From an uncultured Acidobacteriota bacterium (GTDB lineage: Bacteria > Acidobacteriota > UBA6911), in NCBI GenBank assembly GCA_963809485.1, contig CAWEJX010000004.1, forward strand, positions 192,001 to 256,000: a stretch of 64,000 nucleotides of DNA, written 5' to 3'. The notes beneath the pieces are model-generated. The model saw nothing but the letters and a program-made list of their open reading frames with translations. It did not search any database and was not told where the DNA came from. A program made the translations under genes and the position numbers. Shown one piece after another: positions 3,117 through 27,044 of this stretch (its first letter is position 1; the number at the start of each line of letters is the position of its first letter).

Positions 3117-5375
3117 CTAAGTCCTGCCTAAGGCTTTCAGCACTTTGTCCGGTGTTACCGGCGGGAAGATCCATTGTCCGATGGCATTGGCCACGGCGCA
3201 AACGGGAAGCAGAGGAGCGGCCATGCAGTGGCTGATGCCTGTCGCTCCATAGCAGGCGTTCCCCGATCGGGTTTCAACGGCATAGGTTTCGATCGGCCCA
3301 AAATCCAGCATCGTGGGCTTCTTATACTCCCACATGTTCGTGCTGAGCTTAACACCCGTCGCCTTGTCGAAAATCCACTCCTCGGATAATCCCCCTCCAT
3401 GACTGAAGAACATCGCCTGATGTAACTGGCCCTCAAACGACGTCATCCTCAGCACCTTGCCCGGATCACAGACGACCACATATTTGGTCACCTCCACCGC
3501 CCCGGTTTCGGGATCCACCGCCACCTCGCAGAAGCTCGTATTCATGACATCGAGGACTTTCCCGCCCTTGTGCCACGTGGTTTCCGGCGGTCTCCCGAAG
3601 AACGTCGCCGTGATATCCAGGTCATGATCGCCGAAGCCTTCATCCGCGATAAATTTCCCGAACGGGATGGATTGGCTGGGATCAGACTTCAGGTAAACCA
3701 TTGTGTCCCTTGTCTCAAGATCCTCAGGTTTGGCTTTGAATTTTGGGGCAGCCAGCTCCAGCAGCAGTTTTTTGCAGGCTACGGCCGCCTCTTTCATGAC
3801 CCAGGCGGATGCCGAAGTGCCGTCGCTCCCTCCCCCAACGGGAGTGAAAATGGCCTTGTTGTCATAAAGGAGAATCACATCCTCGATTTTTGCGCCCAAC
3901 TCCTCGGCGACGACCAGTGCGCAGGCATCGGCAGCGTAGACGCCAATCCAGGGTCCTTTGAGAGGCACATAGACTTTGTTGTCTGCCTGAATGGTGACCG
4001 TTGCCGTGTATGGTTGCTGGGCGTGGCGGGGAGACTGGGCGTACCGGAAGCTCAAGCCGTGCAGCCTGCCGTCGGCGAGCTTCTTCGTCCCAGCCGGATG
4101 CCACTTCCAGTTCATGGCCTGCTTGCCTTTTTCGATGCATTGCTGCAAGCCGGGAGGGACTCCGGGATCGGTCTGCGAAGCGGGACCGTGGACGTTTTTC
4201 AGAGCGATGTCCGTCGGGTCCATGCCAAGTTTTTCCGCCACGAGCTGTTCGGCTATGGTCATGGCGTCCCAATTAAACGGAGATGTCTGGCTGCCGGTGT
4301 TTTTGCCCGAACTCGTGTATACTCCCTGGGCATCGCTTCTAAGATTGACACAGCGGGTGGTATTGAACGGACTGAACATGGCTTCAAAGGCTCCCATGGC
4401 AAAAGCGCGCGCATTTTTGCCCGGAGCCCCCTGATCCCCGATCTGGCTCTCATAGACCGCCGTAATCGTCCCGTCATTTTTGAATCCGACTTTTGTGTGC
4501 ATGTAGCGCTGCGGATTTGAAGGATAGAAGTCGTTCTGCCTGGTATTCATGCACCGGACGGGCCGCCCCGTCCTCCTTGCCAGCAAAGGCGTAATGTAGG
4601 CGGCGCGGCGGATGAACCAGTCGCAGTACTTGCCGCCCTGGAAGGTGGTTCCGCGGTAGAGCTTATCGAAGGTGACGTTGTACATGGGACGAAGCTCAAA
4701 CGAACCCCACGTAGGGCTTATGCCCTCGATATAGAGCGTCGGGCCATCAACTCCCAACGGATCCTGAGCCCACCACGAGACGCTCCCGTTCGGATTCGGG
4801 ATATGCGAAGCCATGAGCGCCTGAGCCCAGTCGAATTCGACAATGTGGTCCGCCACTTTGAAACCGGCCTCAACATCCCCCGTGGTGAACGGTTTGGAGG
4901 CAAGGTCCTTGGGATCGATGCGAACGACCGGTGCGCCGGCCTTCAGACCATCCCGGGGATCCACCACGGTCGGCAGCACTTCCCATTCCACCTGGATCCG
5001 CTTCAGCGCCTCATCGCAGATTTCCGGGGTTACGGCGACAACTACCGCGCCTATTTCTTCGTCTTCGGTATCCGATTCGTCAATAAGCAGCGGCTCCCGG
5101 GTTCCTTTCATGTTCAGGATATCCGGATCGTCCCAGGTAAGGATATCCACCACTCCTTCCAGCGCTTTGGCTTTGCTGATATCGATGCTCTTGATCTTTG
5201 CCCGGCCATAGGGATTCCTGAGGAATTTGGCATGAAGCATGTCCGGCACGACATAATCGCTGCCGAATTTTGCTCTGCCTGTGGCGATGGTATACGACAG
5301 CCTGCCGGGCACATTCGTCCTGCCGACGGCTATAAATTCCGTTCTCTGTCCATTGCTGCCAACTATATCTGCCAT
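3117..5375 (-). CDS. Xanthine dehydrogenase family molybdopterin-binding subunit (paralog 1)
   Basis: ATGRAKF..DMLHAKFLRNPY..AKIKSIDISKAKALEGV N-terminus, EVAVDPETGAVEV, PVTPDKVLKAL C-terminus. Confidence 0.92.
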   Translation of the reverse strand: MADIVGSNGQRTEFIAVGRTNVPGRLSYTIATGRAKFGSDYVVPDMLHAKFLRNPYGRAKIKSIDISKAKALEGVVDILTWDDPDILNMKGTREPLLIDESDTEDEEIGAVVVAVTPEICDEALKRIQVEWEVLPTVVDPRDGLKAGAPVVRIDPKDLASKPFTTGDVEAGFKVADHIVEFDWAQALMASHIPNPNGSVSWWAQDPLGVDGPTLYIEGISPTWGSFELRPMYNVTFDKLYRGTTFQGGKYCDWFIRRAAYITPLLARRTGRPVRCMNTRQNDFYPSNPQRYMHTKVGFKNDGTITAVYESQIGDQGAPGKNARAFAMGAFEAMFSPFNTTRCVNLRSDAQGVYTSSGKNTGSQTSPFNWDAMTIAEQLVAEKLGMDPTDIALKNVHGPASQTDPGVPPGLQQCIEKGKQAMNWKWHPAGTKKLADGRLHGLSFRYAQSPRHAQQPYTATVTIQADNKVYVPLKGPWIGVYAADACALVVAEELGAKIEDVILLYDNKAIFTPVGGGSDGTSASAWVMKEAAVACKKLLLELAAPKFKAKPEDLETRDTMVYLKSDPSQSIPFGKFIADEGFGDHDLDITATFFGRPPETTWHKGGKVLDVMNTSFCEVAVDPETGAVEVTKYVVVCDPGKVLRMTSFEGQLHQAMFFSHGGGLSEEWIFDKATGVKLSTNMWEYKKPTMLDFGPIETYAVETRSGNACYGATGISHCMAAPLLPVCAVANAIGQWIFPPVTPDKVLKALGRT

Positions 5376-6433: not shown

Positions 6434-7240
6434 ATGATTATCAAAACAATCCCCATTCCAAGCATGGACCAGGCATTTTCCGTAAAAGGCAAGAACGTTA
6501 TTGTTACCGGAGGCAACCGGGGCATCGGTTTCGGCATCAGCACCGCTTATGCCCAGAGCGGCGCAAATGTGGCGATCCTCTGTCGAAACAAGGGGAGCGG
6601 CGACAAAGCCGTCCAGGAACTCGACAAATACGGAACCACCTGCATATGCGTACCGTGCGACGTGGGTCAGGCGCAGGAAGTAAAGACGGCCGTGGACAAG
6701 GTCTTCGAAAAATTTTCCATGGTCGATGTGCTCATAAACAACGCCGGCACTTCGACCGTTTCCCAATTCCTGGATGACAAGGACCTCAAGGAATGGCACC
6801 GCATCATCAATACAAATCTTAACGGCCCGGCTCATACGATTTATGAAGTTGTTCCCCGCATGATAAAGGCAGGCAAGGGTGGAAGCGTCATCAATATTTC
6901 TTCAACCGGAGGACAGAACCTCGGAGGAGCCAGAACGCACCCGATGTCCCCCTATCATGTCTCAAAAGCGGCTCTGGATATGTTCACACGCAATATGGCC
7001 ATCGAATTCGGCGACTATGGCATTCGCGTGAATGCGATTGCGCCCGGCCCGACGCATTCCGATCTGGACAAAGACCTGCCGCCGGATGCGTTTGAAAAGT
7101 TTGAAAAGCTCATGCCGATGCACCGTTTTGCGGAACCGATTGAGATCGGCGCCCTGTGCGTGTTCCTCTCCTCGCCGGCCGGCAATCAAATTACAGGGAC
7201 GGTCGTGGTCCACGACGGCGGTCTGCTCTTAATCGCCTAA
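6434..7240 (+). CDS. Classical SDR oxidoreductase
   Basis: TGGNRGIG, NNAG, YHVSK (YxxxK), IRVNAIAPG; GAAAGGA RBS. Confidence 0.95.
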   Translation: MIIKTIPIPSMDQAFSVKGKNVIVTGGNRGIGFGISTAYAQSGANVAILCRNKGSGDKAVQELDKYGTTCICVPCDVGQAQEVKTAVDKVFEKFSMVDVLINNAGTSTVSQFLDDKDLKEWHRIINTNLNGPAHTIYEVVPRMIKAGKGGSVINISSTGGQNLGGARTHPMSPYHVSKAALDMFTRNMAIEFGDYGIRVNAIAPGPTHSDLDKDLPPDAFEKFEKLMPMHRFAEPIEIGALCVFLSSPAGNQITGTVVVHDGGLLLIA

Positions 7241-7314
7241 TGAGGAGGATTTGGAAACGGTTTCATGAAATCCGGTGCTCTCCAATGCCGTAATGCGCGG
7301 ACCCTCACCAACCA

Positions 7315-7354
7315 TCAGCGCTTTTCAGCGCCGTTGTGGGTGCAGGTCAGGATT
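7315..7354 (+). repeat. Degenerate TCAGCGT-array copy
   Basis: tcagcgcttttcagcgccgttgtgggtgcaggtcaggatt keeps the unit spacing. Confidence 0.45.
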
Positions 7355-7457
7355 GCCGGGCCAAAGGTATGTTATTGTTTCCGGCTTCATTTTTCTCGAT
7401 AATTATGGCCGAATTTGATTTATGCTTAGCCTATAGCCCTGCTAAGGAGATCGGACC

Positions 7458-8183
7458 ATGGCTGAATCGAAGACAGGCGAAAAAAAGAAGAAACAGGTTT
7501 TAAGACGTGAATTCCTGGTTGGCGGCGGAGCGGCCATCGCGGCCGGCGCCCTGACGGTATGCGCCCCTGAATCCGCAGCCCTGGCAGAACCGGTGCCCGC
7601 GGCGGCAACGGTTTCATACGAGCCGTCGGCCGGGTACATCGTCTATGACAGCAGGCTCTGTCTTGGCTGTCAGAGCTGCATGTTTGCCTGCTCGATGACG
7701 CATGAGGGCGAAGGGAATCCCTCGGTATCCAGAATCCAGATCATTCGCGACGCCCCGTCATTCACAAAATACCCCTACGACATCGTCATGTCGGTATGCA
7801 GGCAGTGTGTCACCCCGTTGTGTGTCCAGAATTGCCCAACGGGTGCATGTCATGTGGATGCCGCCAACGGCAACGTCCGGAGGATCGACGAAAAGAAATG
7901 CATCGGCTGCAAGCGGTGCATCAACTCCTGTCCCCAAAGACCGCACCGGACGATCTGGAATGCGGCCAAGAAAAAATCCACGAAATGCGACCTGTGCACC
8001 GATGCTCCTTATTGGAGCCAGAAGGGCGGTCCGGACGGACACCAGGCCTGCGTTGAAAACTGCCCCGCGAAGGCCCTCAAGCTGGTGAAAGAGCCACCGC
8101 CACAAATGGATGTTGCGGGATATGACGTGAATCTAGCTCCGCCCCCGGCGAAGAAAGCCGCCCCGCCCAAAATAGTGCAATAG
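7458..8183 (+). CDS. 4Fe-4S dicluster protein (DmsB/AOR small-subunit-like) with Tat-like signal
   Basis: LRREFL twin-arginine motif; CLGCQSCMFAC, CRQCVTPLCVQNCP, CIGCKRCINSCP, KCDLC..ACVENCP; AAGGAG RBS. Confidence 0.9.
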   Translation: MAESKTGEKKKKQVLRREFLVGGGAAIAAGALTVCAPESAALAEPVPAAATVSYEPSAGYIVYDSRLCLGCQSCMFACSMTHEGEGNPSVSRIQIIRDAPSFTKYPYDIVMSVCRQCVTPLCVQNCPTGACHVDAANGNVRRIDEKKCIGCKRCINSCPQRPHRTIWNAAKKKSTKCDLCTDAPYWSQKGGPDGHQACVENCPAKALKLVKEPPPQMDVAGYDVNLAPPPAKKAAPPKIVQ

Positions 8184-8251
8184 CAGCCCCAGGGACGCCT
8201 GCTGCGCTTCTTCCGCGCCGGCGATGCGGTGGTTTACCAAAGTGAATCGTT

Positions 8252-9661
8252 TTAGCGCTTTCTCAAATCCTCGATAATCTCCCGGTATTCACGCCTTATT
8301 CTCAAGGGATCGAGGTCCGGGCTGCTTTCCAGCGTTCCGATGTCCCGGTACCCTTTTGCGACTGCATTTCTCAATGCCTCTATCGCCTGTTTCACTCTGC
8401 CGCCCAGGCTTTGCGCGCGGGCGAGATGAAAAAAAACCTGCGGATTGTCCGGCTGAATCTGCGTCATTAATTCCAGCCGGAGTGCCGCAGATGCATAGTC
8501 CCGCCTTTCGAAAGCGTCTGAGGCATCCGCGTTCAGCACGATCCAGAATTGAGTGAGGACGCGAATCCCGGCAATGCGGGCGATCCCATCTTTCTTCTGA
8601 TCGGCTTCACCTCTGATACGGGAAAGACTGGTCCGGAGTTCCCGGGTGGCGTCCAGAGGATCTCTGCCTGCTTTCACATTTTCAAAAAGAAGCGAAAGAT
8701 CCCTGACAGTGATTTTCTGCCTCTTCTCGACATCCTTTTCCAGCGCGCGGGATTTCCTGACCTCTTTAGCTGAATTCAGCTGCTTTGCTTTCATCTCAAC
8801 GGCGGTCACATCTCTCAGTCCGGAAAAGCCTTCATGCGCTGCAGAATAGCGCTCCAGGGATGCATCCTGCCGCCCTTGCCTTTCCAGTGTTTCGGCTTCT
8901 TCCACGGTCTTCGCATAAATCTTTTCGATCAAAGACGCATCTCTGCCGCGTAGCCCCGCTTTCATTGCCTGGAGTTCCAGCCATTCAACAGCGTGAGTGC
9001 ACACATTTTCCGGCGGCCACTCGTGACCACCGGAAAATGTCTCGAATTGGCGGGGAACCCTTAATCCTGCGAGTACCCGGTCCAACTCCCGGAGTTCAGG
9101 AAAATTGAAATCCTCAAAACCCGCGGCGAGGTACACCGCGAACGGGGTTGCCGCAGTCGGAGGGAGGTCCGGAGGAAAGCCCGCGCCAAAAGCAGCGATG
9201 CCGGCAACTTTCCCCTTCATGGCAAACCCGACCTCAACGGCAGCGCGGGCGCCGCCGGAAAAACCGGTCAGATAGAACCTCTGCGTATTGATGGAAAATC
9301 GAAGCTGGGTATCGCGGAGCATGGCGTTGACGGCCGCTTCAACGATCTTGACAGGGCCATTCCGCGAATTGTTGGATCCCGCCAGGATATAGCCGTATTT
9401 CTCGGCAGCTTCCCTGAAACGCTGAACGGGCATCAGGCCCCGGGCGCCCGGGTCCAACGCATAAAGGATAGGCCATTTCCTGTCCGGCACATAGCCGTAA
9501 GGCAAATAAAGGGCATAGGTCTGCGCTGGATCGGCCTGGCAGGCAACTGTCTCCAGAATTTGACCGCGGGGCAATTCCTGGCCTGCGAGCAGCGGTCCGA
9601 TGAACAGAAAATAAACAAGCCGGAGATTCAGTTGGATCAGCCTGAAGCTGCGCTTTTTCAT
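8252..9661 (-). CDS. Secreted alpha/beta-hydrolase-fold protein with C-terminal TPR
   Basis: YALYLP, GFSGG nucleophile elbow, GGHEWP; TPR end FHLARAQSLGG..AIEALRNAVAKGY..PDLDPLR. Confidence 0.85.
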   Translation of the reverse strand: MKKRSFRLIQLNLRLVYFLFIGPLLAGQELPRGQILETVACQADPAQTYALYLPYGYVPDRKWPILYALDPGARGLMPVQRFREAAEKYGYILAGSNNSRNGPVKIVEAAVNAMLRDTQLRFSINTQRFYLTGFSGGARAAVEVGFAMKGKVAGIAAFGAGFPPDLPPTAATPFAVYLAAGFEDFNFPELRELDRVLAGLRVPRQFETFSGGHEWPPENVCTHAVEWLELQAMKAGLRGRDASLIEKIYAKTVEEAETLERQGRQDASLERYSAAHEGFSGLRDVTAVEMKAKQLNSAKEVRKSRALEKDVEKRQKITVRDLSLLFENVKAGRDPLDATRELRTSLSRIRGEADQKKDGIARIAGIRVLTQFWIVLNADASDAFERRDYASAALRLELMTQIQPDNPQVFFHLARAQSLGGRVKQAIEALRNAVAKGYRDIGTLESSPDLDPLRIRREYREIIEDLRKR

Positions 9662-9887
9662 AAAAGCCCGACTGGAGGATTGGGAGTGCGCATGGGCCTG
9701 CCTCTTGTGCCCTAATCATAACAGCGATCCGGCGTAATAGGGACGTCATTCATCATGCTGCGCAGCGGTGCCGGCTTTTAGCTCTGGCTTTGGAGATCGC
9801 TTCTCCAGGGGCATAAGATGAGTCTCCATTCTCGGCTATTCAAGATTATGGGATTCCGCTAAAATAGGCCTCAACCACCGAAACGCT

Positions 9888-10253
9888 ATGCATTGTATTT
9901 CACCGGCTGTCGGTTTGGAGGGATACCTCGTGATCGGCAAGGACCAGGGCATGCTTTTCGGCGCCATGGCGGTCCTCAGCCCTCCGGTCGCCAATTACAT
10001 CAAGGCAGAAGGATTCGATACGGTTGAGAAGCTGACGGAATATATAAGGCCGGCCGCGGAGCCTCCCATGGGAAAGCCGCCCGCCGGCAAAGAGCCTGCC
10101 GGGAAGGCGCCTGCCGGAAAGCAAGCCGGCGGAGCCCCGCCCTTCGGTGGAATGCCGATATCCATCGTCGTATCCGGAGGAGCGAACAACAATTATTGGA
10201 GCTATGGAGGAATGGCTCCCCGCCAAAGCGTCCTGATCGACAAGTGGCGCTAG
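9888..10253 (+). pseudogene. C-terminal fragment resembling UGSC-family (seleno)proteins
   Basis: EGFDTVEKL..IVVSGGANNNYW..SVLIDKWR terminus; no upstream body of the gene. Confidence 0.5.
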
Positions 10254-10324
10254 GCCGGTGCAGTTTGTCTTTCCGGTTTTCGAGGAGATCGATCCAAATA
10301 TTGCATGAGTTCCAATTGCTTTGG

Positions 10325-17903: not shown

Positions 17904-18154
17904 AATTCGGGGTCGGACCACGCTAAATAACTGGCATTAAAGGGTAAAGGTGCAGTTTTGCAGGTCTAAATGGGCTTAGAGCAGAATTGGGGAGGGTATT
18001 TTTGACTGTAAGAAAACAGGGATGTCTCCAATCAGTATGAAAATCCTTACACGTAAAATATGCCGCCCCAAATTGCAGCCGGCCCTTTTATCGGTCCCGA
18101 AAAATTGGTTATCAATAATCCTGCGAAGGCTTTATCGTGGTCTCACCCCCCGTT
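17904..18154 (+). repeat. ~250-bp MITE/REPIN-like repeat, intact copy (empty target site of the integrative element)
   Basis: Termini ggggtcggaccacg..cgtggtctcacccc are inverted; body aligns with 22900-23003 plus 26917-26960 and with 20457-20617. Confidence 0.8.
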
Positions 18155-19197: not shown

Positions 19198-20334
19198 ATG
19201 CGAGTTCCGCGTTATCTCGAGAGTGCTGTGGGCGAGGCGTTGCGCAAGAAGATGGCATTCGTCGGCGGTCCCAGGCAGGTCGGCAAAACGACGTTTGCGC
19301 TTGGCTTTCTCGGCAAAAATGCCGATGAAACGCACCCTGCCTATTTAAACTGGGACCGCCCGAGCGTTCCACCCAAATTGAGAAAAGCGGAAATGCCGGC
19401 CGGAGAGCCTCTCGTGCTTCTGGATGAAATCCACAAGTACGCCCGCTGGAGGGGCATGGTCAAGGGAATCTTCGATGTTGAGAAGTCCCGCGGAAAATTC
19501 CTTGTGACCGGTTCCGCCCGGCTCGATTATTATCGTAAAGGGGGAGACTCTCTCGCGGGCCGCTACCGGTAATTTCGTCTCCATCCCTTCTCTCTGAGAG
19601 AACTCAATCGCCACCCGTTGCGGTCGGACCTTTCGGCTTTGCTGCAGTTCGGCGGATTTCCCGAGCCTTTATTCTCGCAGAATGAACCGGAGCATCGAAT
19701 CTGGCGTCGAGACCGCATCGTGCGAGTCGTTCGACAGGACCTCCGTGATTTGGAACAGGTCCGGGAAATCAGTCTCATGGAACACCTGGCCGATTTGCTG
19801 CCGTCCAAAGCAGGTTCCCCGCTGTCGATCAAGAGCCTGAGGGAGGGCCTCCAGATCGACCACAAAACGGCGGAACGCTAGCTGCAGATCCTGGAGAATC
19901 TCTATGTCTGCTTCCGCGTCTCTCCCTATGGCCCCCCGAGGATCCGAGCCGTGAAAAAGGAAAGGAAGTTGTATCTCTGGGACTGGTCGAGCGTTGAGGA
20001 TGCCGGGGCTCGATTTGAGAACCTGGTCGCCTCTCAGCTTCTGAAGTATTGCCACTGGATTGAAGATACCGAGGGCTACCCGATGGAACTCAGGTACCTT
20101 CGAGATACGGACAAACGCGAAGTCGATTTTGTGGTTCTGAAAGATCGCAAGCCACTGTGGGCGGTAGAATGCAAATCAGGAGAGAAGTCCGTCGGTCAAG
20201 CGCTCCGCTACTTCGCCGAAAGAACCGCAATCCCTCGATTTTTCCAGACGCGTCTCGGCGAGAGGCACTTCGAAAGTGGCAAGATCACGGTGTTGCCATT
20301 CACGCGGCTTTGTCAAGAGCTCGAGCTGCCATAG
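19198..20334 (+). pseudogene. AAA_14 + DUF4143 ATP-binding protein with two in-frame stops
   Basis: GPRQVGKTT, LDEIH, TGSA, GGFPEP, FENLVA, EVDFV in one frame; TAA at 19570-19572 (RYR*FRLHP), TAG at 19879-19881 (ER*LQILE). Confidence 0.88.
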
Positions 20335-20617: not shown

Positions 20618-20728
20618 AAACCATTTCTTTTCTATGGGCGCCCATCCAATTTTGCTATATTAGCTCTACCCGATTGATCCCACATTGCATGCATTGAACC
20701 CGATGTCGACGTGGAGGAAGCGCTCCCT

Positions 20729-21339
20729 ATGATCGGCAAGACGCTGGGGCACTATAGAGTCGGCGAACAGCTTGGCCGCGGAGGCATGGGGGAAGTCTTT
20801 GTTGCCGATGACCTCAATTTGAACCGCAAGGTCGCCCTCAAGTTCCTTCCCGAAGCATTCACGGGCGATCCCGAAAGAATGGCCCGCTTCGAGCGCGAGG
20901 CCCGACTTCTGGCATCGCTCAATCATCCCAGCATCGCTGCGATCTATGGACTCGAACAGGCCGAAGGCAAGAGGTTCCTCGTCCTGGAACTGGTAGAGGG
21001 CGAGAATCTGGCGCAGAGGACCGGCTGTCGAGGGCCCCTAATCAATTGCTATGGTACGACCGGCAGGGAAAAGTCCTCGGATCCGTTGGACCGCCGGGCA
21101 TCTAATCAATTCCGGTAATTTCTCCGGATGGCAGGCGATTCGCGGTCAGGACTGCGCCGGATTTTGAAGCCGGTGTCCCTGTTACTCTTTTTAATGCCTT
21201 TCCCGGCGCCTGGCGGACCCGGAACAATTTCGATGTCACAAGCGACGGGCAACGCTTCCTCATTGTCAGCCTGACCCGGGACGAGACCACTTCATCGATC
21301 ACCGTTACTCTTAATTGGACTGCCCTGGCAAAGAAATGA
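20729..21339 (+). pseudogene. Collapsed Ser/Thr kinase with PD40/TolB-like C-terminus
   Basis: MIGKTLGHY..LGRGGMGEV..VALKFL..RFEREARLLASLNHPSIAAIYG, then QLLWYDRQGK..ISPDGRRFAV, then NFDVTSDGQRFL..ITVTLNW; catalytic loop missing. Confidence 0.85.
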
Positions 21340-21451
21340 CGCTCCCCCACCCTCTTCCGGGCCCTGCTGCGCAATATAAACCTGAATTTACCTGCAATAC
21401 CGCCCACAAGGAGTTTATAGCCTGACGGTAAAAATGCTCGCACGATTTCCT

Positions 21452-21482
21452 TGCAAATTAGAGGGCGGCGCTCTAATCTGCA
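21452..21482. promoter_or_regulatory. Inverted repeat (putative operator) before the second AAA gene
   Basis: TGCAAATTAGAG-GGCGGCG-CTCTAATCTGCA, 4 nt before ATG 21487. Confidence 0.6.
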
Positions 21483-21486
21483 TAGT

Positions 21487-22647
21487 ATGTGGCGACGCCT
21501 GGCTCAAACGAGATTGCGTGCACTCTGGCGGCAGTTTCCGGCCGTGCTGATTTTGGGAGCGCGCCAGGTCGGCAAAACGACACTGGCCCGCCAGACATTT
21601 CCCGGCTTTCCCTACTGCGACCTGGAGGAACCGCACCTCCGTGCACTGTTTGCCGACGATCCGACATTCCAGATCCAACAACGTTCGCGCCCCGCACTCA
21701 TTATTGACGAAGCTCAGGCCGTGCCCGCTGTTTTTAATTCACTGCGCGGAATCATCGACGCACATCGCAAGAAGAATGGCCGCTTTCTGTTGCTTGGTTC
21801 GGCGCAGCCTTCGCTGGTCCGCCAGATTTCCGAATCGCTCGCCGGCCGGGTCGGAATCCTGGAATTGGACCCGCTTACCGCAGCTGAGGCCGCCACGGGG
21901 GACCGGGCGCGAGACTGGCAGCAATTATGGCTGCAGGGAGGTTTTCCCGATGCTTTGGGCGGCTCCTTTCGCGAATGGTGGGAAGCCTACTTGCGGACTT
22001 ATGTGGAGCGCGACCTACCTCAATTGGGAGTTCCTGCAGATCCCATTCTGCTGCGCCGCCTGCTCACGATGCTGGCGCACATCCAGGGCGGCATGCTCAA
22101 TGCTTCGCAACTCGGCAACTCCCTGGACGTTACGTACCATACGGTGCAGCGCTACCTGAGCGTTCTTGAGCAGACCTTCATTATCCGGCACCTCCCGCCA
22201 TACTATCGCCACATCGGGAAACGCCTGACGAAAGCTCCAAAAATCTATTTGCGCGATACCGGACTGCTGCACCATCTGCTCAATATCAATACGCTGGAGG
22301 AACTCGATCATCATCCCCAGCGCGGCGCCAGCTGGGAGACGTTTGTAATGGAAGACCTCATTCGCAGAGAGAAACTGCGCCATCCGCACGCGCAATTCTA
22401 TTATTGGAGAACTGCGACCGGAGCAGAGCTTGACCTGTTGCTGGACCGCGGATCCCAACGCATTGGAATTGAGATTAAAGCCGGGCGAGGCGACAAAACA
22501 ACTATTGCCCGCGCAACCGAGCAGATTGCCAAGGATGCAGGCGCCACTTCGGTTTGGATTCTCGATCAGGCTGCAGGTACGGAGGCTCTCCGGCCATCTG
22601 TCCGGCGGCGCGGCTTCGCCGAAAGCCTAAAATGGCTTCCCTCCTGA
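21487..22647 (+). CDS. AAA_14 + DUF4143 ATP-binding protein
   Basis: GARQVGKTTLA, IIDEAQ, LLGSA, ESLAGR, GGFP, TYVERD, KAPKIYLRDTGLL, ELDLL..IEIK. Confidence 0.92.
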   Translation: MWRRLAQTRLRALWRQFPAVLILGARQVGKTTLARQTFPGFPYCDLEEPHLRALFADDPTFQIQQRSRPALIIDEAQAVPAVFNSLRGIIDAHRKKNGRFLLLGSAQPSLVRQISESLAGRVGILELDPLTAAEAATGDRARDWQQLWLQGGFPDALGGSFREWWEAYLRTYVERDLPQLGVPADPILLRRLLTMLAHIQGGMLNASQLGNSLDVTYHTVQRYLSVLEQTFIIRHLPPYYRHIGKRLTKAPKIYLRDTGLLHHLLNINTLEELDHHPQRGASWETFVMEDLIRREKLRHPHAQFYYWRTATGAELDLLLDRGSQRIGIEIKAGRGDKTTIARATEQIAKDAGATSVWILDQAAGTEALRPSVRRRGFAESLKWLPS

Positions 22648-22785: not shown

Positions 22786-22871
22786 GTATTGAACCGGTTG
22801 TCGACGTGGAGGAGGCGCTCCCGATGATCGGCACGACACTCGGGCATTACCGGATCACCAGCCAGCTTGGA
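22786..22871 (+). pseudogene. 5' stub of a second Ser/Thr kinase gene
   Basis: ttgaaccggttgtcgacgtggaggaggcgctcccgATG ATC GGC ACG ACA CTC GGG CAT TAC parallels 20694-20760. Confidence 0.75.
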
Positions 22872-22899
22872 TTAGGGGGTAATTTGGACAATTAGTGAC

Positions 22900-23003
22900 A
22901 ATTCGGGGTCGGACCACTTTAAATCACTGGAAGGGGAAAGGTGCAGTTATGCGGGCCTAAATGGGCCTAAAACAGAATTGAGGGGGGGCATTTTTGATTG
23001 TAA
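22900..23003 (+). repeat. Left half of the interrupted ~250-bp repeat (target, left flank)
   Basis: aattcggggtcggaccac..ggtgcagtt..ctaaatggg..cagaattg..tttttgattgtaa aligns with 17904-18011. Confidence 0.85.
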
Positions 23004-23022
23004 TTGACCGGCCAATCGCTGC

Positions 23023-24171
23023 CTATTTTTCTTCTCCAGCCGATCCTGAAGGGTGGAGTTTTTTCAGTTTGCTTGACACCTTGGCAAGCCGATTGATGAG
23101 GCGCTGCATTGTAAGCTGTTGTTTTGAAGCGTTGAGGCCTCGCCGATTCATTTCGAGGAAGTGCATCGCATCGGCAATGCACTGGAGAGCACGGATATGA
23201 GGGTGTACGGATTGGTTACGGGGATTGCTGCGTTGCGGCAGCTGGTAGAGGTTGGCCAGGTTGGCTCGGGCCGAACTATATTCGCGTTGTAGATCTACCT
23301 GACTCACCTCTACATAACGCATTGTCATTTCGATTTTTGTATGTCCGAGGAGTGTTTTGACTGCAGGCAGGCTGGCGCCGCCGCGGAGCATCTCGGTCGC
23401 AAAAGTATGTCTCATTTGATGCGTCGTGATTCGGGACGCACTGCAGTTTGCTTTTCGGGCCGCTTTCCTGATCATCGCGACCATTTGGCTATACGAAGGA
23501 CGGGAGCCATCTTCGCGCATTAGCAAGAAGGTGGATAATTTTCTGGCCTTAGCCGGGGCTCGATTGCGCAAATCATCGAGGTGTTCAATAAGACTACGGC
23601 TATGGGCGTCCAAGGGAACCAATCTTTCCGTATGCATCTTGCCGAGAGGGACGCGGATTGCCCACTGTTGATCGCCCAGATCCCGGAAGCAATCGACTGC
23701 GAGATTCAAACATTCACCAACGCGCATACCGGTGGCACGCATGAGAAGCAGCGCAGTTGCTTCAACGGTGCCTTTTTTGCGGAGTTCTTCGCAAATGAGG
23801 CGATCATCTTCGGGCGAGAGGGGCCGGGGAAGGTACTTGTCCAGGTGTGGGAAGTCTCGGCGAACGATGAGGTTTTCTCTTATTCGGTCTATTCCTTCAT
23901 CGGCAAGGTCGCGAAGGCACTTGCGTAGCTCATAGAGTTGGTGGAGACGGGTGCAGGTTCGGGAGCTGGCCAAAGTTGAGATCCATCCGAGGATATGCGG
24001 ATCCCGCCTGAGTTGGGAGAGCTTATGAATCTCGGGGTGGTTTTGTTTGAGGAAGCGCATGAAGCCATTCAAAGTGCTTCGATACCGATACATCGTGTTT
24101 GGCCTGTGAACAATAGCAAGACTCTGAAGATAGGAATCGAAGATCTGTTGAATAGTGCGCGGTTTACTCAT
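23023..24171 (-). CDS. Tyrosine recombinase 2
   Basis: TGMRVGE, GKMH, HQMRHTFA, LGH, MRY: full R-K-HxxR-H-Y set; ATG overlaps upstream gene end (GATGAGTAA). Confidence 0.93.
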   Translation of the reverse strand: MSKPRTIQQIFDSYLQSLAIVHRPNTMYRYRSTLNGFMRFLKQNHPEIHKLSQLRRDPHILGWISTLASSRTCTRLHQLYELRKCLRDLADEGIDRIRENLIVRRDFPHLDKYLPRPLSPEDDRLICEELRKKGTVEATALLLMRATGMRVGECLNLAVDCFRDLGDQQWAIRVPLGKMHTERLVPLDAHSRSLIEHLDDLRNRAPAKARKLSTFLLMREDGSRPSYSQMVAMIRKAARKANCSASRITTHQMRHTFATEMLRGGASLPAVKTLLGHTKIEMTMRYVEVSQVDLQREYSSARANLANLYQLPQRSNPRNQSVHPHIRALQCIADAMHFLEMNRRGLNASKQQLTMQRLINRLAKVSSKLKKLHPSGSAGEEK

Positions 24172-25222
24172 CGAAGGAAGCACTCCGGAGTTGGGCCAAC
24201 GCTTGCGATCGCTTTTCGACGGCGCGGTGATATTCCCGCCAGACATCCTGGGGAGACAATTCCACGTAGAGCATGGTCGTGTGAATCTGAGAATGACCCA
24301 TGAGTCGCATCAGTGCGGGTACTGAAACGCCGGCACGGATCATGTCGGCACCGAAGGTGTGGCGGAACCGATGCGGGTGGGCGTTGATCGTTTGAGTCGC
24401 ACGTCGATGGTGACGAAACAACGAACGCAGGCCGGCGGATGTCATCGGTTGGCCGCGCCGCCATCCCTTGAGAGAAAGAAACAGGAGGGGCGACCCGAAA
24501 GCAGGCCGTTCGAATTCGAGATAACGCCTAAGAACCCGAATGATCGCATCTGCCAATGGCAGAACCCGCTGTCTGTTTCCTTTGCCACGAACAAAGATCT
24601 GAGTCTCGGAAAGCCGCAAATCTTCGAGCCGGAGTTGGATCGTTTCATGGGAACGCAGGCCGTTAAAAAGCATCAATCCCACGAGACTGAGGTCACGGAA
24701 GGTGCGAAAGCTGGACCAGAAACGTGAAACTTCATCAGGCTGGAGGGGGATGACGACTTTTCGAGGTTGTCGTAACCGCAGTCCCGCGATTGCGGTGCTG
24801 GGTTTTCCTATGCCCATTGGACTTCGTCTCTTGTATCGGGTTTGCACACTGGCGCGAGTTCTGGGGACTTCCTTCTGGTAGTAGAATCGGTACAGGGATC
24901 GGACAACCACCAAACGATGATTGACCGTAGGCGGCGACGGCTTGGGTTCGTTTTCAAGTTGGTATCGAACGTAATCGAGCAGACGAAGCTCGTTGAGAGT
25001 GGATAGACTCGGCCAGCGAGAACCGTGTAACCACCAACGGACGAAGTTCAACAGATCGAACCCATACGAGCGCAAGGAACGGACGGAAAGGTTGCGCAGG
25101 TACTGGGCATCCAGAAAATCATTGATGAAACGGACCGGCTGGTCCTTAGAATCCAAGAGTTGATAGGGAGACATGCCCGCAGGGCCGGATGGGTAACGAA
25201 TGAGATGAAAAGGCGGGGTCAT
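24164..25222 (-). CDS. Tyrosine recombinase 1
   Basis: GLRSHE, GKGNRQR, HRFRHTFG, MGH, MLY; ATGA overlap with primase stop. Confidence 0.93.
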   Translation of the reverse strand: MTPPFHLIRYPSGPAGMSPYQLLDSKDQPVRFINDFLDAQYLRNLSVRSLRSYGFDLLNFVRWWLHGSRWPSLSTLNELRLLDYVRYQLENEPKPSPPTVNHRLVVVRSLYRFYYQKEVPRTRASVQTRYKRRSPMGIGKPSTAIAGLRLRQPRKVVIPLQPDEVSRFWSSFRTFRDLSLVGLMLFNGLRSHETIQLRLEDLRLSETQIFVRGKGNRQRVLPLADAIIRVLRRYLEFERPAFGSPLLFLSLKGWRRGQPMTSAGLRSLFRHHRRATQTINAHPHRFRHTFGADMIRAGVSVPALMRLMGHSQIHTTMLYVELSPQDVWREYHRAVEKRSQALAQLRSASFDE

Positions 25223-26226
25223 ACACATTGTGCTTCCTCCAGACATCTTGTGAAATCAGCAGCGGTGGCTCCGGAAACAAAGAAACTATTGGGATCATGG
25301 TTTTCCGGAAGCGGTACGATCTTCGATTGCAGACCGGCCTCCCGGAGTTGCCGTGCCAGTTTCAAAGCAGCGCGTTGACCGGCAGCATTCGTATCCGAGT
25401 CAAAAGCAATGAAGATCTGTCTATTGAGATCGTCGCATAGTTGGGCAAACTGCTTGCCTGTCAGGTGGCAGCCGAGAGCGCTGGTTGTATTGCGAAAGCC
25501 AGCCTGCCAGAGAACCGCAAGATCGAAAAGGCCTTCCACCAGGATAACGTTGGGAGCATTGTGAATCGACTCCCATGCGACCAGGCCGATCCTAACACGA
25601 GGCAGAAATCGATGTGGCGGCGGGGGACCGATGCTGCGTCCGTACAGATTGACGATGCGGTTCTGATCGAGACAAGGAAAGACGATGCGGTGAAAGAAGG
25701 TGTCATGCCCCTTTTGATTTATCAATCCAAGATTCACGAGCCGGTCGTAATTGTGGCCGCATACCGATAACAGGTGCCCACGCAAACTGCCGCCTGGCGC
25801 ATAGCCCAATCGAAGGTGACGTAATATCTCTGGATCCCGCAATCCGCGTTGGTGAAGATAGTTCATCGCTTCCTGGTGGTGCTGCAACTGATACTGGTAA
25901 AAAGCGACCGTATCGCGGAGGAGGTCGTCATCACCCCTGAGCTTGTCCCATTCTCCGGCCAGCCGTGCGACGCTATCGCGGAAAGAAAGGTTGAAGTAGA
26001 CCTGGACGAAGCGAATCAAGTCGCCGCCATAGCCACAGCCATGGCAGTGAAAAAGATTTTTCTCGGCGTTGACATAGAACGACGGCTGGGTCTCGGAGTG
26101 CAGCGGGCACAATCCAACATATTCGTTCCCTGAACCCACAGGACGGCCAGTCCAATTGAGGCGTTTGAGATAATCCAACAGTGGAAGATCGCGCTTAAGT
26201 TTTTCCACTTCCTTGCAGTTTGCCAT
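25219..26226 (-). CDS. DnaG-like primase (CHC2 zinc finger + TOPRIM), no helicase-binding tail
   Basis: CPLH..PSFYV..FHCHGCG.GGD, RIVFP, YGR, VEGLFD, FDSD..AG, DPN. Confidence 0.9.
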   Translation of the reverse strand: MANCKEVEKLKRDLPLLDYLKRLNWTGRPVGSGNEYVGLCPLHSETQPSFYVNAEKNLFHCHGCGYGGDLIRFVQVYFNLSFRDSVARLAGEWDKLRGDDDLLRDTVAFYQYQLQHHQEAMNYLHQRGLRDPEILRHLRLGYAPGGSLRGHLLSVCGHNYDRLVNLGLINQKGHDTFFHRIVFPCLDQNRIVNLYGRSIGPPPPHRFLPRVRIGLVAWESIHNAPNVILVEGLFDLAVLWQAGFRNTTSALGCHLTGKQFAQLCDDLNRQIFIAFDSDTNAAGQRAALKLARQLREAGLQSKIVPLPENHDPNSFFVSGATAADFTRCLEEAQCV

Positions 26227-26609
26227 CAGAGCCTCCGGACGGGAACGCCTGTTCGGCCGCAAATGATGCAGGCGATACGTTCGAGAGGGTTTGCTCTCGC
26301 AGATCCGACGTTCCCTGACTTTGATGGATCGATCCTGACATTACTGTCTTGGCTTCTGGAACCCTGATACGTCACGCTTTTTTTATTGGACTGGCGCAGA
26401 CGATAGTTGCGCTGGTGGTCTCGATGGTCGAGTTTGCCTAAGGGACTTTGCCGGTAGCGTCTATTCGCTTCGCGCAGTTGGTGCCGGCGGGCGCGGTCCC
26501 GACATGCCTGACTGCAGTAGTGCTGTCCGCGATCGCAGTGACTGCAGATATGGAATATCTTGCCGCACCCCGCGGCATGGCAAGATCGTTGCCGGAGGAT
26601 GAGTTCCAG
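26226..26609 (-). CDS. Cys-rich basic protein (127 aa, CTG start proposed; absent from ORF track)
   Basis: LELILRQRSCHAAGCGKIFHICSHCDRGQHYCSQACRDRARRHQLREANRRYRQS..VTYQGS..CIICGR; GAAAGGA upstream; TGATG coupling to primase. Confidence 0.72.
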   Translation of the reverse strand: MELILRQRSCHAAGCGKIFHICSHCDRGQHYCSQACRDRARRHQLREANRRYRQSPLGKLDHRDHQRNYRLRQSNKKSVTYQGSRSQDSNVRIDPSKSGNVGSARANPLERIACIICGRTGVPVRRL

Positions 26610-26916
26610 GGGCCAATCGTCCTTTCCCGAAGGCGGGACTCGACAACGGCCCCCATGTCATGGCACGCTAAAGACGACTTTGGTTCTGGGAGCTTTAACC
26701 GGGCTCTTGGAATTTAGCCTCGATCGTTACAGCGGTCGGGGCTTTCTTTTTCCGCCTTTCACGCCGCCACGATATCACCACCAGGGCTCAAGAAATCTAT
26801 TGCAGTTACCCAGAAGCAAAGAACACGGCTGAATAAAAGAGAAACCAGCTGAAAGAAAAAATAGGCAGCCACTCCTGGGCTGGTTTAGAAAAAACGACAT
26901 TTTGGCCGGTTAATAG

Positions 26917-26960
26917 GTAAGAAATCGGGGATGTTTCCAATCAGAATGAAAATCCCTACA
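26917..26960 (+). repeat. Right continuation of the interrupted repeat (target, right flank)
   Basis: gtaagaaatcggggatgtttccaatcagaatgaaaatccctaca matches gtaagaaaacagggatgtctccaatcagtatgaaaatccttaca at 18008-18051. Confidence 0.85.
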
Positions 26961-27044
26961 TACTCAGCATCTTTTCGAAGGGCGGCGCGTCAGGCGTTTT
27001 GTGAGAATTGAATCTGTGGCCATGCGCGAACCTACTCATAAGGT

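Follow-up and report, generated by a model that had tools for sequence, protein, structure and literature searches.

A cargo-free transposon of Acidobacteriota that encodes two tyrosine recombinases and a DnaG-type primase

Introduction

What is a DnaG-type primase doing in one operon with two tyrosine recombinases (YRs), and does that operon move? The question is raised by four minus-strand genes in the genome of an uncultured soil Acidobacteriota bacterium of the UBA6911 lineage. They lie in a 64,000-nucleotide stretch of DNA (GenBank assembly GCA_963809485.1, contig CAWEJX010000004.1, positions 192,001 to 256,000 of the forward strand), which we refer to as “the window”; positions given without a contig or locus label are window positions. 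In order of transcription, the genes encode a Cys-rich protein, the primase, and two recombinases, YR-A and YR-B. An earlier reading made from the sequence alone, referred to below as the original prediction, proposed that they form a compact integrative element. Here, we report that window 23000–26921 is one copy of an autonomous, cargo-free transposon, and that this transposon is mobile. Our favored reading of how it moves, to which we assign a probability of about 0.6, is that the recombinases join the element ends into a core with two 12-nt arms and a 7-nt spacer (12-7-12), and that the primase primes a replicative copy-out step.

Prokaryotic tyrosine-recombinase transposons have been sorted into five groups: integrative and conjugative or mobilizable elements (ICE/IME), SE (strand-biased circularizing elements), GInt, RIT (recombinase in trio), and Tn554 (Idola et al. 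2023, PMC10214605). Movement of RIT and GInt elements has never been reproduced in the laboratory, according to the same paper.

A discrete unit that has moved

The element is a discrete unit of 3,922 bp. A search of the window's own genome, a check that the original prediction had proposed, returned a second copy on contig C7 that is 100% identical over all 3,922 bp and lies downstream of lepA. Identity between the two copies ends exactly at window positions 23000 and 26921, beyond which the flanks are unrelated. Since the flanks are unique at both copies, the pair is unlikely to be an assembly duplication. The neighbors of the copies are ordinary chromosomal genes, i.e., those for an FAD-binding oxidase, a CCG/Fe-S protein, a DUF4143 ATPase, and lepA, and the GC content of the element is similar to that of its surroundings.

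An unoccupied version of the copy-1 site was sought in assembled contigs of two public DNA runs (small shares, 0.15 and 0.06). One 151-nt metagenome contig (run X2, depth 2) joins window 22944–22986, with 2 mismatches, to 26918–27012, with 0 mismatches, over 12 letters. The empty site reads ..TTTTTG ACTCTAA GAAATC.., and the occupied site reads ..TTTTTG ATTGTAA (arm ... arm) TAGGTAA GAAATC... Comparison of this contig with the window shows a precise insertion, which added the 3,910 nt that run from arm to arm and, besides these, one 7-nt spacer. The low-depth contig is backed by an uninterrupted paralog of the target within the same genome (Table 1), which continues into right-flank-like sequence (..TTTTTG ACTGTAA GAAAAC..). 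The second copy is likewise inserted in a short repeat, intact copies of which carry ..GAGTAAG.. once; in the nearest genome, the contig stops short of the copy-2 site. LepA places the host in Acidobacteriota. A search of the 29 other species of the genus gave no primase at E ≤ 1e-60, and YR-B was detected at E ≤ 1e-40 in 2/301 sampled genomes of the phylum, the window's own included.

The case for an autonomous mobile element thus rests on two identical copies with sharp ends, an empty site, a gene order that is conserved among relatives, and the occurrence of multicopy units of ~4 kb elsewhere (see below). These observations support a recently active element of the size of an insertion sequence (IS), and no piece of a prophage or ICE.

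The original prediction had the four genes filling almost all of the 3.9 kb; the four genes are there, with coding sequence making up ~3.6 kb and positions 26658–26921 forming a non-coding leader outside the Cys-rich gene. Inside the unit, there is no further open reading frame (ORF) of ≥50 amino acids (aa) with a family match, and no cargo. The ORF list and Pfam agree with the original prediction that helicase, relaxase, and cargo genes are absent, and the element ORFs also contain no type IV secretion system domain, which sets the unit apart from ICEs and IMEs, although an oriT may go unrecognized in sequence alone. A scan for promoters and terminators gave 5 and 5 sites where 2.5 and 4.1 would be expected, and is uninformative; an Rfam search gave no match at E ≤ 0.1. 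In PADLOC, the primase matches only models of DRT-associated DnaG-like proteins, at the level of the domain, and the other three proteins have no match.

An operon of primase and recombinases

The four ORFs overlap translationally. The three gene junctions read CTCTGATGGCA, TGTATGACC, and TTCGATGAGTAAACC, and these sequences confirm the TGATG, ATGA, and GATGAGTAA start/stop overlaps that had been described earlier; the YR-A and YR-B genes overlap by 8 nt. The YR-B stop codon lies inside the terminal repeat, and there is therefore no room for a gene downstream of YR-B.

The primase matches the Pfam families Zn_ribbon_DnaG (E 5e-20), DNAG_N, and Toprim, and aligns to residues 6–333 of the Aquifex DnaG structure 2au3. 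Pfam detects no helicase-binding domain, in agreement with the predicted CHC2 and TOPRIM motifs without a helicase-binding tail. The score of the protein is below the NCBIfam dnaG cut-off (181.5 vs 283.6 bits). A separate DnaG-like region at C20:20506–21450, 32% identical to the element primase, is probably the host dnaG. Residues C40, H43, C61, C64, E231, G232, D235, D276, and D278 of the element primase are invariant in 15/15 sequences that share 58–100% identity.

YR-A and YR-B are 32% identical over 188 residues, and their nearest solved relatives are XerC-like, XerD, and XerA proteins. The original prediction held that both keep an R-K-HxxR-H-Y catalytic set, and the residues are retained across the family: R190, K214, H284, R287, H310, and Y319 of YR-A in ≥97% of 62 distinct family sequences, and R150, K178, H251, R254, H277, and Y286 of YR-B in ≥97% of 49. 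Judged by this residue conservation, selection maintains the activity of the primase and of both recombinases.

Ends, spacers, and targets

Terminal inverted repeats, another feature of the original prediction, are present as 12-nt arms that differ at a single position (Table 1). In gene orientation, the element starts with TTAACCGGCCAA and ends with TTGGCCGGTCAA. The 7-nt spacer beside the 3′ arm, ATTGTAA, differs at 1/7 positions from that of the uninterrupted paralog, ACTGTAA (18005–18011), and at 2/7 positions from that of the metagenome contig, ACTCTAA.

Table 1. Features of the element and its target, by position in the window
Feature	Position	Strand	Details
Uninterrupted paralog of the copy-1 target repeat	17904–18060		BLAST, 82.5% identical to the left flank
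Target-type junction spacer ATTGTAA, 7 nt, YR-B side	22997–23003		Compared with paralog and empty-site spacers
Terminal arm TTGACCGGCCAA, 12 nt, 3′ arm in gene orientation	23004–23015		Inverted repeat of 26902–26913, 1 mismatch
Subterminal box GCTGCCTATTTTT, overlaps the YR-B stop	23018–23030		13 nt, 100% complementary to 26857–26869
YR-B, tyrosine recombinase, 382 aa, ~80-aa C-terminal tail	23023–24171	−	Phage_integrase E 5e-31 plus SAM-like N domain
YR-A, tyrosine recombinase, 352 aa	24164–25222	−	Phage_integrase E 2e-31 plus SAM-like N domain
DnaG-type primase, 335 aa, zinc-binding domain plus RNA-polymerase/TOPRIM core	25219–26226	−	Pfam
Cys-rich zinc-ribbon gene, ~127 aa if CTG start	26226–26609	−	Frame open to 26657 (stop-to-stop)
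Conserved hairpin around the Cys-rich start	26607–26655	−	RNA minimum free energy −30.8 kcal/mol, z −2.61
Subterminal box AAAAATAGGCAGC	26857–26869		Partner of 23018–23030
Terminal arm TTGGCCGGTTAA, 12 nt, 5′ arm in gene orientation	26902–26913		Inverted repeat of 23004–23015
Element-borne spacer TAGGTAA, 7 nt (gene orientation TTACCTA)	26914–26920		Identical in both copies

The 12-nt arms are common to 39 distinct family insertions (47 rows of two-armed insertions, less 8 strand duplicates that arise from palindromic arms), which bears out the expectation that the same terminal repeats would be found at other sites. The two junction spacers are identical in 14/39 of these insertions, and in the others they differ mainly at positions 5–7. 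Counted from the 3′ arm, the numbers of insertions with identical bases at the seven positions are 38, 39, 37, 36, 27, 21, and 26 of 39. When copies within a genome are compared, the 5′-arm spacer is the same throughout in 9/10 groups, while the 3′-arm spacer changes from target to target. Targets are alike within a subfamily, and many resemble weak copies of the core. In the subfamily formed by the window element and the related loci L003 and L133, the shared word is TTAC, with A-rich sequence around it. If the ends were joined, an arm, 7 nt, and the other arm would follow one another in the classical core layout of tyrosine recombinases (12-7-12). An arm-spacer-arm pattern was seen only at L077 8161–8200, where the 3′ arm is followed by 7 nt, by the first 10 nt of the 5′ arm, and then by unrelated sequence; either the element inserted beside an isolated arm, or the target itself resembles the core site.

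Family and distribution

The primase has thousands of relatives, 329–376 aa in length, many of them on contigs of 3–6 kb. We collected the best 80 of 261 primase-encoding stretches in contigs from one genome per species; a collection made through the primase leaves relatives without a primase outside. The order primase, YR-A, YR-B is colinear in 70/80 loci (61 with a full-length YR-B match and 9 with a partial one), in keeping with the conserved synteny that the original prediction had proposed to look for. The remaining ten are cut by a contig end (five loci) or interrupted (five loci); two of the interrupted loci hold insertion sequences, and two hold a 3.4-kb insert in YR-A. That insert occurs in L060 and L062 (~6868–10283), both from one genome and in opposite orientations, and may be a nested mobile element. 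More diverged loci, with primases 34–57% identical, have YR-A directly after the primase in 11/12 cases, the exception being L141, and in those 11 YR-B follows YR-A wherever the locus is long enough.

About 70 of the 80 loci are labeled as Acidobacteriota lineages. The other ten are labeled Planctomycetota, Nitrospirota, Verrucomicrobiota, Methylomirabilota, Acidimicrobiia, and Alphaproteobacteria; binning errors can affect short contigs of multicopy elements, but the Acidimicrobiia copies sit on contigs of 167–449 kb. Ten pairs of loci share blocks of 3,923–4,002 nt at 94.2–99.95% identity, eight of them within a genome and two between metagenome-assembled genomes. One genome holds three full copies together with fragments and diverged relatives, and another holds four copies.

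Kinship with Tn554-related pairs and other known systems

Among 72,556 plasmid records, the best matches of YR-A are recombinases of Rhodococcus, Mycobacterium, and Dietzia, with 34–36% identity; the same search counted three Staphylococcus matches. In the two plasmid records that were inspected, the YR-A match is followed by a second, larger recombinase, with the genes overlapping in one record and separated by a 150-aa ORF in the other. Over 331 aa, YR-A shares 35% identity with the short member of the Rhodococcus pair (E 3e-55), and YR-B is 29% identical to residues 228–555 of the adjacent long recombinase of 651 aa (E 4e-32). Such actinobacterial pairs of a short and a long recombinase are described as a class of Tn554-related transposons, some relatives of which lack TnpC (Van Houdt et al. 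2012, PMC3414803); pBD2, listed in the same paper, is hit H34 of our plasmid search with YR-A. Since YR-A and YR-B match actinobacterial pairs that have been termed Tn554-related, a more fitting description of the element, by sequence, is that of a Tn554-like recombinase module to which a primase and a zinc-ribbon gene are joined.

The likeness to Tn554-related elements extends to two adjacent, overlapping recombinase genes in the same order, both with catalytic motifs, to identical copies at several sites, and probably to junction spacers with a one-sided pattern. The spacers of the 39 insertions are compatible with the lack of a true target duplication in Tn554-related transposons. The sequence comparison was made with the actinobacterial pair. 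The long recombinases of Tn554-related elements have 611–828 aa with an N-terminal extension, whereas YR-B has 382 aa and no extension. Tn554 has a small TnpC gene after the pair, but in the element no such gene follows, and a zinc-ribbon gene leads the operon instead. The spacer of Tn554 has 6 nt and that of the element 7 nt; unlike Tn554, the element has clear inverted arms of 12 nt, a primase, and no cargo. We considered whether the N-terminus of the long recombinase could be a hidden primase and rejected the idea (hhalign probability 0.3). On a Mycobacterium plasmid, a small gene after a pair resembling the Tn554-related ones (L130 6879–7178) matches DUF6262 below threshold (26.8 bits, cut-off 29), and may be a TnpC-like partner.

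RIT elements are likewise compact, free of cargo, and bounded by inverted repeats, with overlapping recombinase genes (PMC3414803, PMC10214605). They have three recombinases and no primase, whereas the element has two recombinases, a primase, and a zinc-ribbon gene. SEs likewise transpose by tyrosine recombination with several proteins, one of their junction spacers being derived from the element and the other from the target, and a copy-out route has been proposed for them (PMC10214605). SEs, however, need IntA, Tfp, IntB, and Srap, have a median length of 15.7 kb with cargo, and are confined to Gammaproteobacteria, whereas the element has 3.9 kb and a primase and is found mainly in Acidobacteriota. 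None of the four ORFs is of the SE/GInt type Tfp/GinC (a recombinase fold without the catalytic tyrosine) or Srap/GinD, as judged from the ORFs and Pfam.

An integrase and a primase-type gene are also found together in P4-like satellites, phage-inducible chromosomal islands (PICIs), and NBU1-type elements. These have one integrase, a primase that is usually fused to or paired with a helicase, genes for regulation, packaging, or mobilization, and a length of ≥10 kb; the element has no helicase or relaxase gene. The element primase shares the zinc-binding domain and RNA-polymerase/TOPRIM core of bacterial DnaG but, at 335 aa, lacks the C-terminal helicase-binding domain. Compared with XerC and XerD, the recombinases score far below the cut-off and sit in a mobile unit with two copies rather than in a single-copy host gene. 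BIM elements, which have one recombinase and an SMC-like protein, were rejected as a match.

The original prediction stated that RIT elements, Tn554, and phage satellites do not have this gene set. The set as a whole was not found described in the full-text literature, which was mostly judged by title and abstract, with subscription journals and supplementary tables outside the search. A correction is needed for the recombinase pair, which has Tn554-related relatives. The word “primase” occurs 0 times in PMC3414803 and PMC10214605, and no name for the element family was found. As far as the checks were run, the homologs are not confined to prophages or ICEs, the gene order is conserved, and the architecture does not coincide with a cataloged family, all of which favors the original prediction.

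A possible mechanism and its alternatives

The mechanism that we favor would proceed as follows. The two recombinases would join the element ends into the 12-7-12 core, consisting of TTGGCCGGTCAA, 7 nt, and TTAACCGGCCAA. This core would recombine with targets that share just the first four spacer bases (TTAC in the subfamily of the window), and exchange would start at one defined side of the spacer, that of the 3′ arm. The heterology at the three remaining bases, positions 5–7, would be resolved through DNA synthesis and not through another, matched exchange, as has been proposed for Tn554 and SEs. A one-sided start followed by synthesis is suggested because mismatches at positions 5–7 are tolerated, with the two junctions retaining their different versions. 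For SEs and Tn554, a one-sided behavior of a 6-bp spacer (“footprint”) has been described, and copy-out has been argued (PMC10214605). The most speculative steps concern the primase, which might supply the primer for this synthesis, on either the recombination intermediate or an excised circle, or might prime second-strand or circle replication; primed synthesis might then make movement replicative (copy-out) and leave the donor copy intact. The IEE PrimPol described in a preprint (10.1101/2023.06.07.543989) offers a loose precedent, as a primase-type enzyme that acts on intermediates of copy-out. We infer the circular intermediate and the role of the primase, and consider priming of a replicative copy-out step to be the most likely function of the latter.

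Other readings make different sense of the same genes. The four could be immobile, either as what is left of, or a module within, a larger prophage, ICE, or island, or as an Xer system of the host; the best NCBIfam matches of the two recombinases are indeed XerC and XerD. These matches are far below the cut-off, however, at 121.8 and 119.8 bits against 335.15. In addition, identity between the copies stops exactly at the arms among ordinary neighbors, the element was not found in the 29 congeners, and an empty site exists. These observations refute the remnant, island, and Xer readings. The element could also be an integrating mini-replicon, i.e., a mainly extrachromosomal circle for which the primase serves as initiator and the recombinases as an integrase pair. 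Primases are common replication genes in plasmids and P4-like satellites, the element primase matches PHROG families of DNA primases, sites are chosen selectively within subfamilies, where targets are alike, and many family members are found on contigs of ~4 kb. Yet none of the whole-contig loci of ~4 kb is circular, the contigs ending near visible arms, and no Rep, helicase, partition, or iteron-like origin feature was found in the element. Several identical copies occupy different chromosomal sites of one genome, and the 72,556 plasmid records contain no close relative of the primase, the best being 32% identical. We therefore regard a mini-replicon as unlikely. Rated a little lower again is the idea that the primase-like protein makes no primer and acts as an architectural or directionality factor in plain cut-out/paste-in movement. 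Excision of the Bacteroides element NBU1 is said to need a primase homolog, PrmN1, where a review speaks of “two genes” only, and excision of CTnDOT uses a TOPRIM protein. The translational coupling of primase and YR-A through the ATGA overlap would suit a shared complex. Against such a role, none of the zinc-binding residues and none of the acidic residues that bind metal in the TOPRIM domain varies in 15/15 sequences, which argues for selected catalysis.

Several points weigh against the favored mechanism of primed copy-out itself. Two identical copies can also result from cut-and-paste movement after replication, and the one-sided spacers are also compatible with a conventional exchange of both strands that requires homology on one side. 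No observation connects the primase with recombination, and recruitment of a replisome is unexplained, because the primase lacks a helicase-binding domain and the element encodes no helicase. The original prediction described an IS-sized element that excises as a circle; the IS-sized mobile element stands, but no circular contig or junction-spanning read was found, and the whole-contig loci have no terminal overlaps, these searches having covered assembled contigs. Metagenome support for the empty site comes from a single contig of depth 2 from a related strain, with 2 mismatches in 43 nt and a spacer that differs at 2/7 positions. On the boldest reading, the family would add a sixth kind to the prokaryotic tyrosine-recombinase transposons, the first known to carry its own DnaG-type primase, and would move by self-priming, replicative copy-out: after a single defined strand exchange at the 12-7-12 core, the primase would turn the resulting intermediate into a new double-stranded copy, with the donor retained. 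This broader claim is tentative, and we hold it at odds somewhat below even.

The Cys-rich leader gene and its hairpin

The Cys-rich ORF ends in a TGA at 26228–26226 that overlaps the primase ATG. No in-frame ATG, GTG, or TTG lies ahead of its cysteine cluster. The only start-like codon that stays in frame in 6/6 close relatives is a YTG, which is CTG here (26609–26607); an ATG at 26656 is out of frame and poorly conserved. A frameshift relative to L003 was considered and rejected: an upstream ATG is present in 2/5 relatives, the upstream frame is variable, and the YTG is present in 6/6.

The protein belongs to a family of 315 proteins, none of them functionally named by any source, and of 3,641 representative clusters at E ≤ 1e-3. 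The family is not covered by any model in Pfam or NCBIfam, and a protein atlas gives unnamed clusters only. Its conserved features are the motif C-x4-C-x6-C-x2-C-DRGQ-x-YCS-x2-CR, a basic helix, and, near the C-terminus, CxxCGR. In most acidobacterial relatives of the element, the leader position is taken by a DUF6431 zinc-ribbon ORF (35.6–41.5 bits, cut-off 26.6), and a third leader type, with many Cys, Gln, and Arg residues (..CSxxACQQQRR..), occurs at L026 4406–4984 and L031 394–909. Most loci of the DUF6431 type have a conserved word ~25–40 nt before the primase start (e.g., L039 ~4960–4985), which reads PPTILAWE or HHPCLG in differing frames; because it is translated in different frames, the word appears to be conserved as DNA or RNA rather than as protein.

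Two more Cys-rich homologs in the window's genome, 46% identical, are the first genes of DDE-transposase operons (C20:515159–515569, L093 5127–5549; C12:24230–24640, L094 5198–5620). One of these operons consists of rve, AAA_22, and a DnaA_N/AAA_25 protein, and the other has an IS21-like pair (IstA/IstB) with a tyrosine recombinase nearby. From these sequence relationships, the unnamed zinc-ribbon family looks like a general transposon accessory gene. Because the leader gene varies and its homologs head DDE operons, the Cys-rich protein may have a regulatory or accessory role that is independent of the kind of transposase; most speculatively, the zinc-ribbon leader would be swappable and stand outside the chemistry.

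A hairpin surrounds the start of the Cys-rich gene, spanning its likely ribosome site and start codon. The core is a block of ~20 nt, GTTGTCGAGTCCCGCCTTCGG, that is largely invariant in 6 aligned relatives and exceeds the coding conservation around it; 0/18 pairs are compensatory. A hairpin-like motif also precedes the Cys-rich homolog in the two DDE transposons (L093, L094), which lack this primase. For these last two reasons, a role as a recognition site for the primase was rejected.

Surroundings of the two copies

The target of copy 1 is a repeat of ~180 nt (22880–22999 plus 26922–27010), the uninterrupted paralog of which lies 5 kb away. Nearby are two truncated 5′ ends of Ser/Thr kinase genes, at 20711–21118 and ~22808–22880, and a DUF4143 ATPase fragment (19951–20334) beside a full copy (21451–22647). 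The region looks as if it has been rearranged repeatedly. Copy 2 is flanked by a repeat of 25–70 nt (L002 1430–1500, equivalent to C7:257740–257810) that recurs in ~15 other places on many contigs of the window's genome and also in congeners; at C19:41168–41768, five regularly spaced hits look like a spaced array.

Implications

The family is widespread in Acidobacteriota, and many contigs of ~4 kb from soil and sediment metagenomes carry related elements. Its genes are currently labeled just “DNA primase” and “integrase,” which is a practical issue for genome work. Beyond annotation, the movement of transposons with several tyrosine recombinases (Tn554, RIT, SE, and GInt) is still largely unresolved, and the family offers a very small test system, with four genes in 3.9 kb, no cargo, 12-nt arms, and a 7-nt spacer. 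It combines natural recent activity with an extra enzyme for which loss of function is easily scored. If the primase is needed for movement, site-specific recombination would be tied directly to primed DNA synthesis, and the copy-out idea for tyrosine-recombinase transposons would become directly testable.

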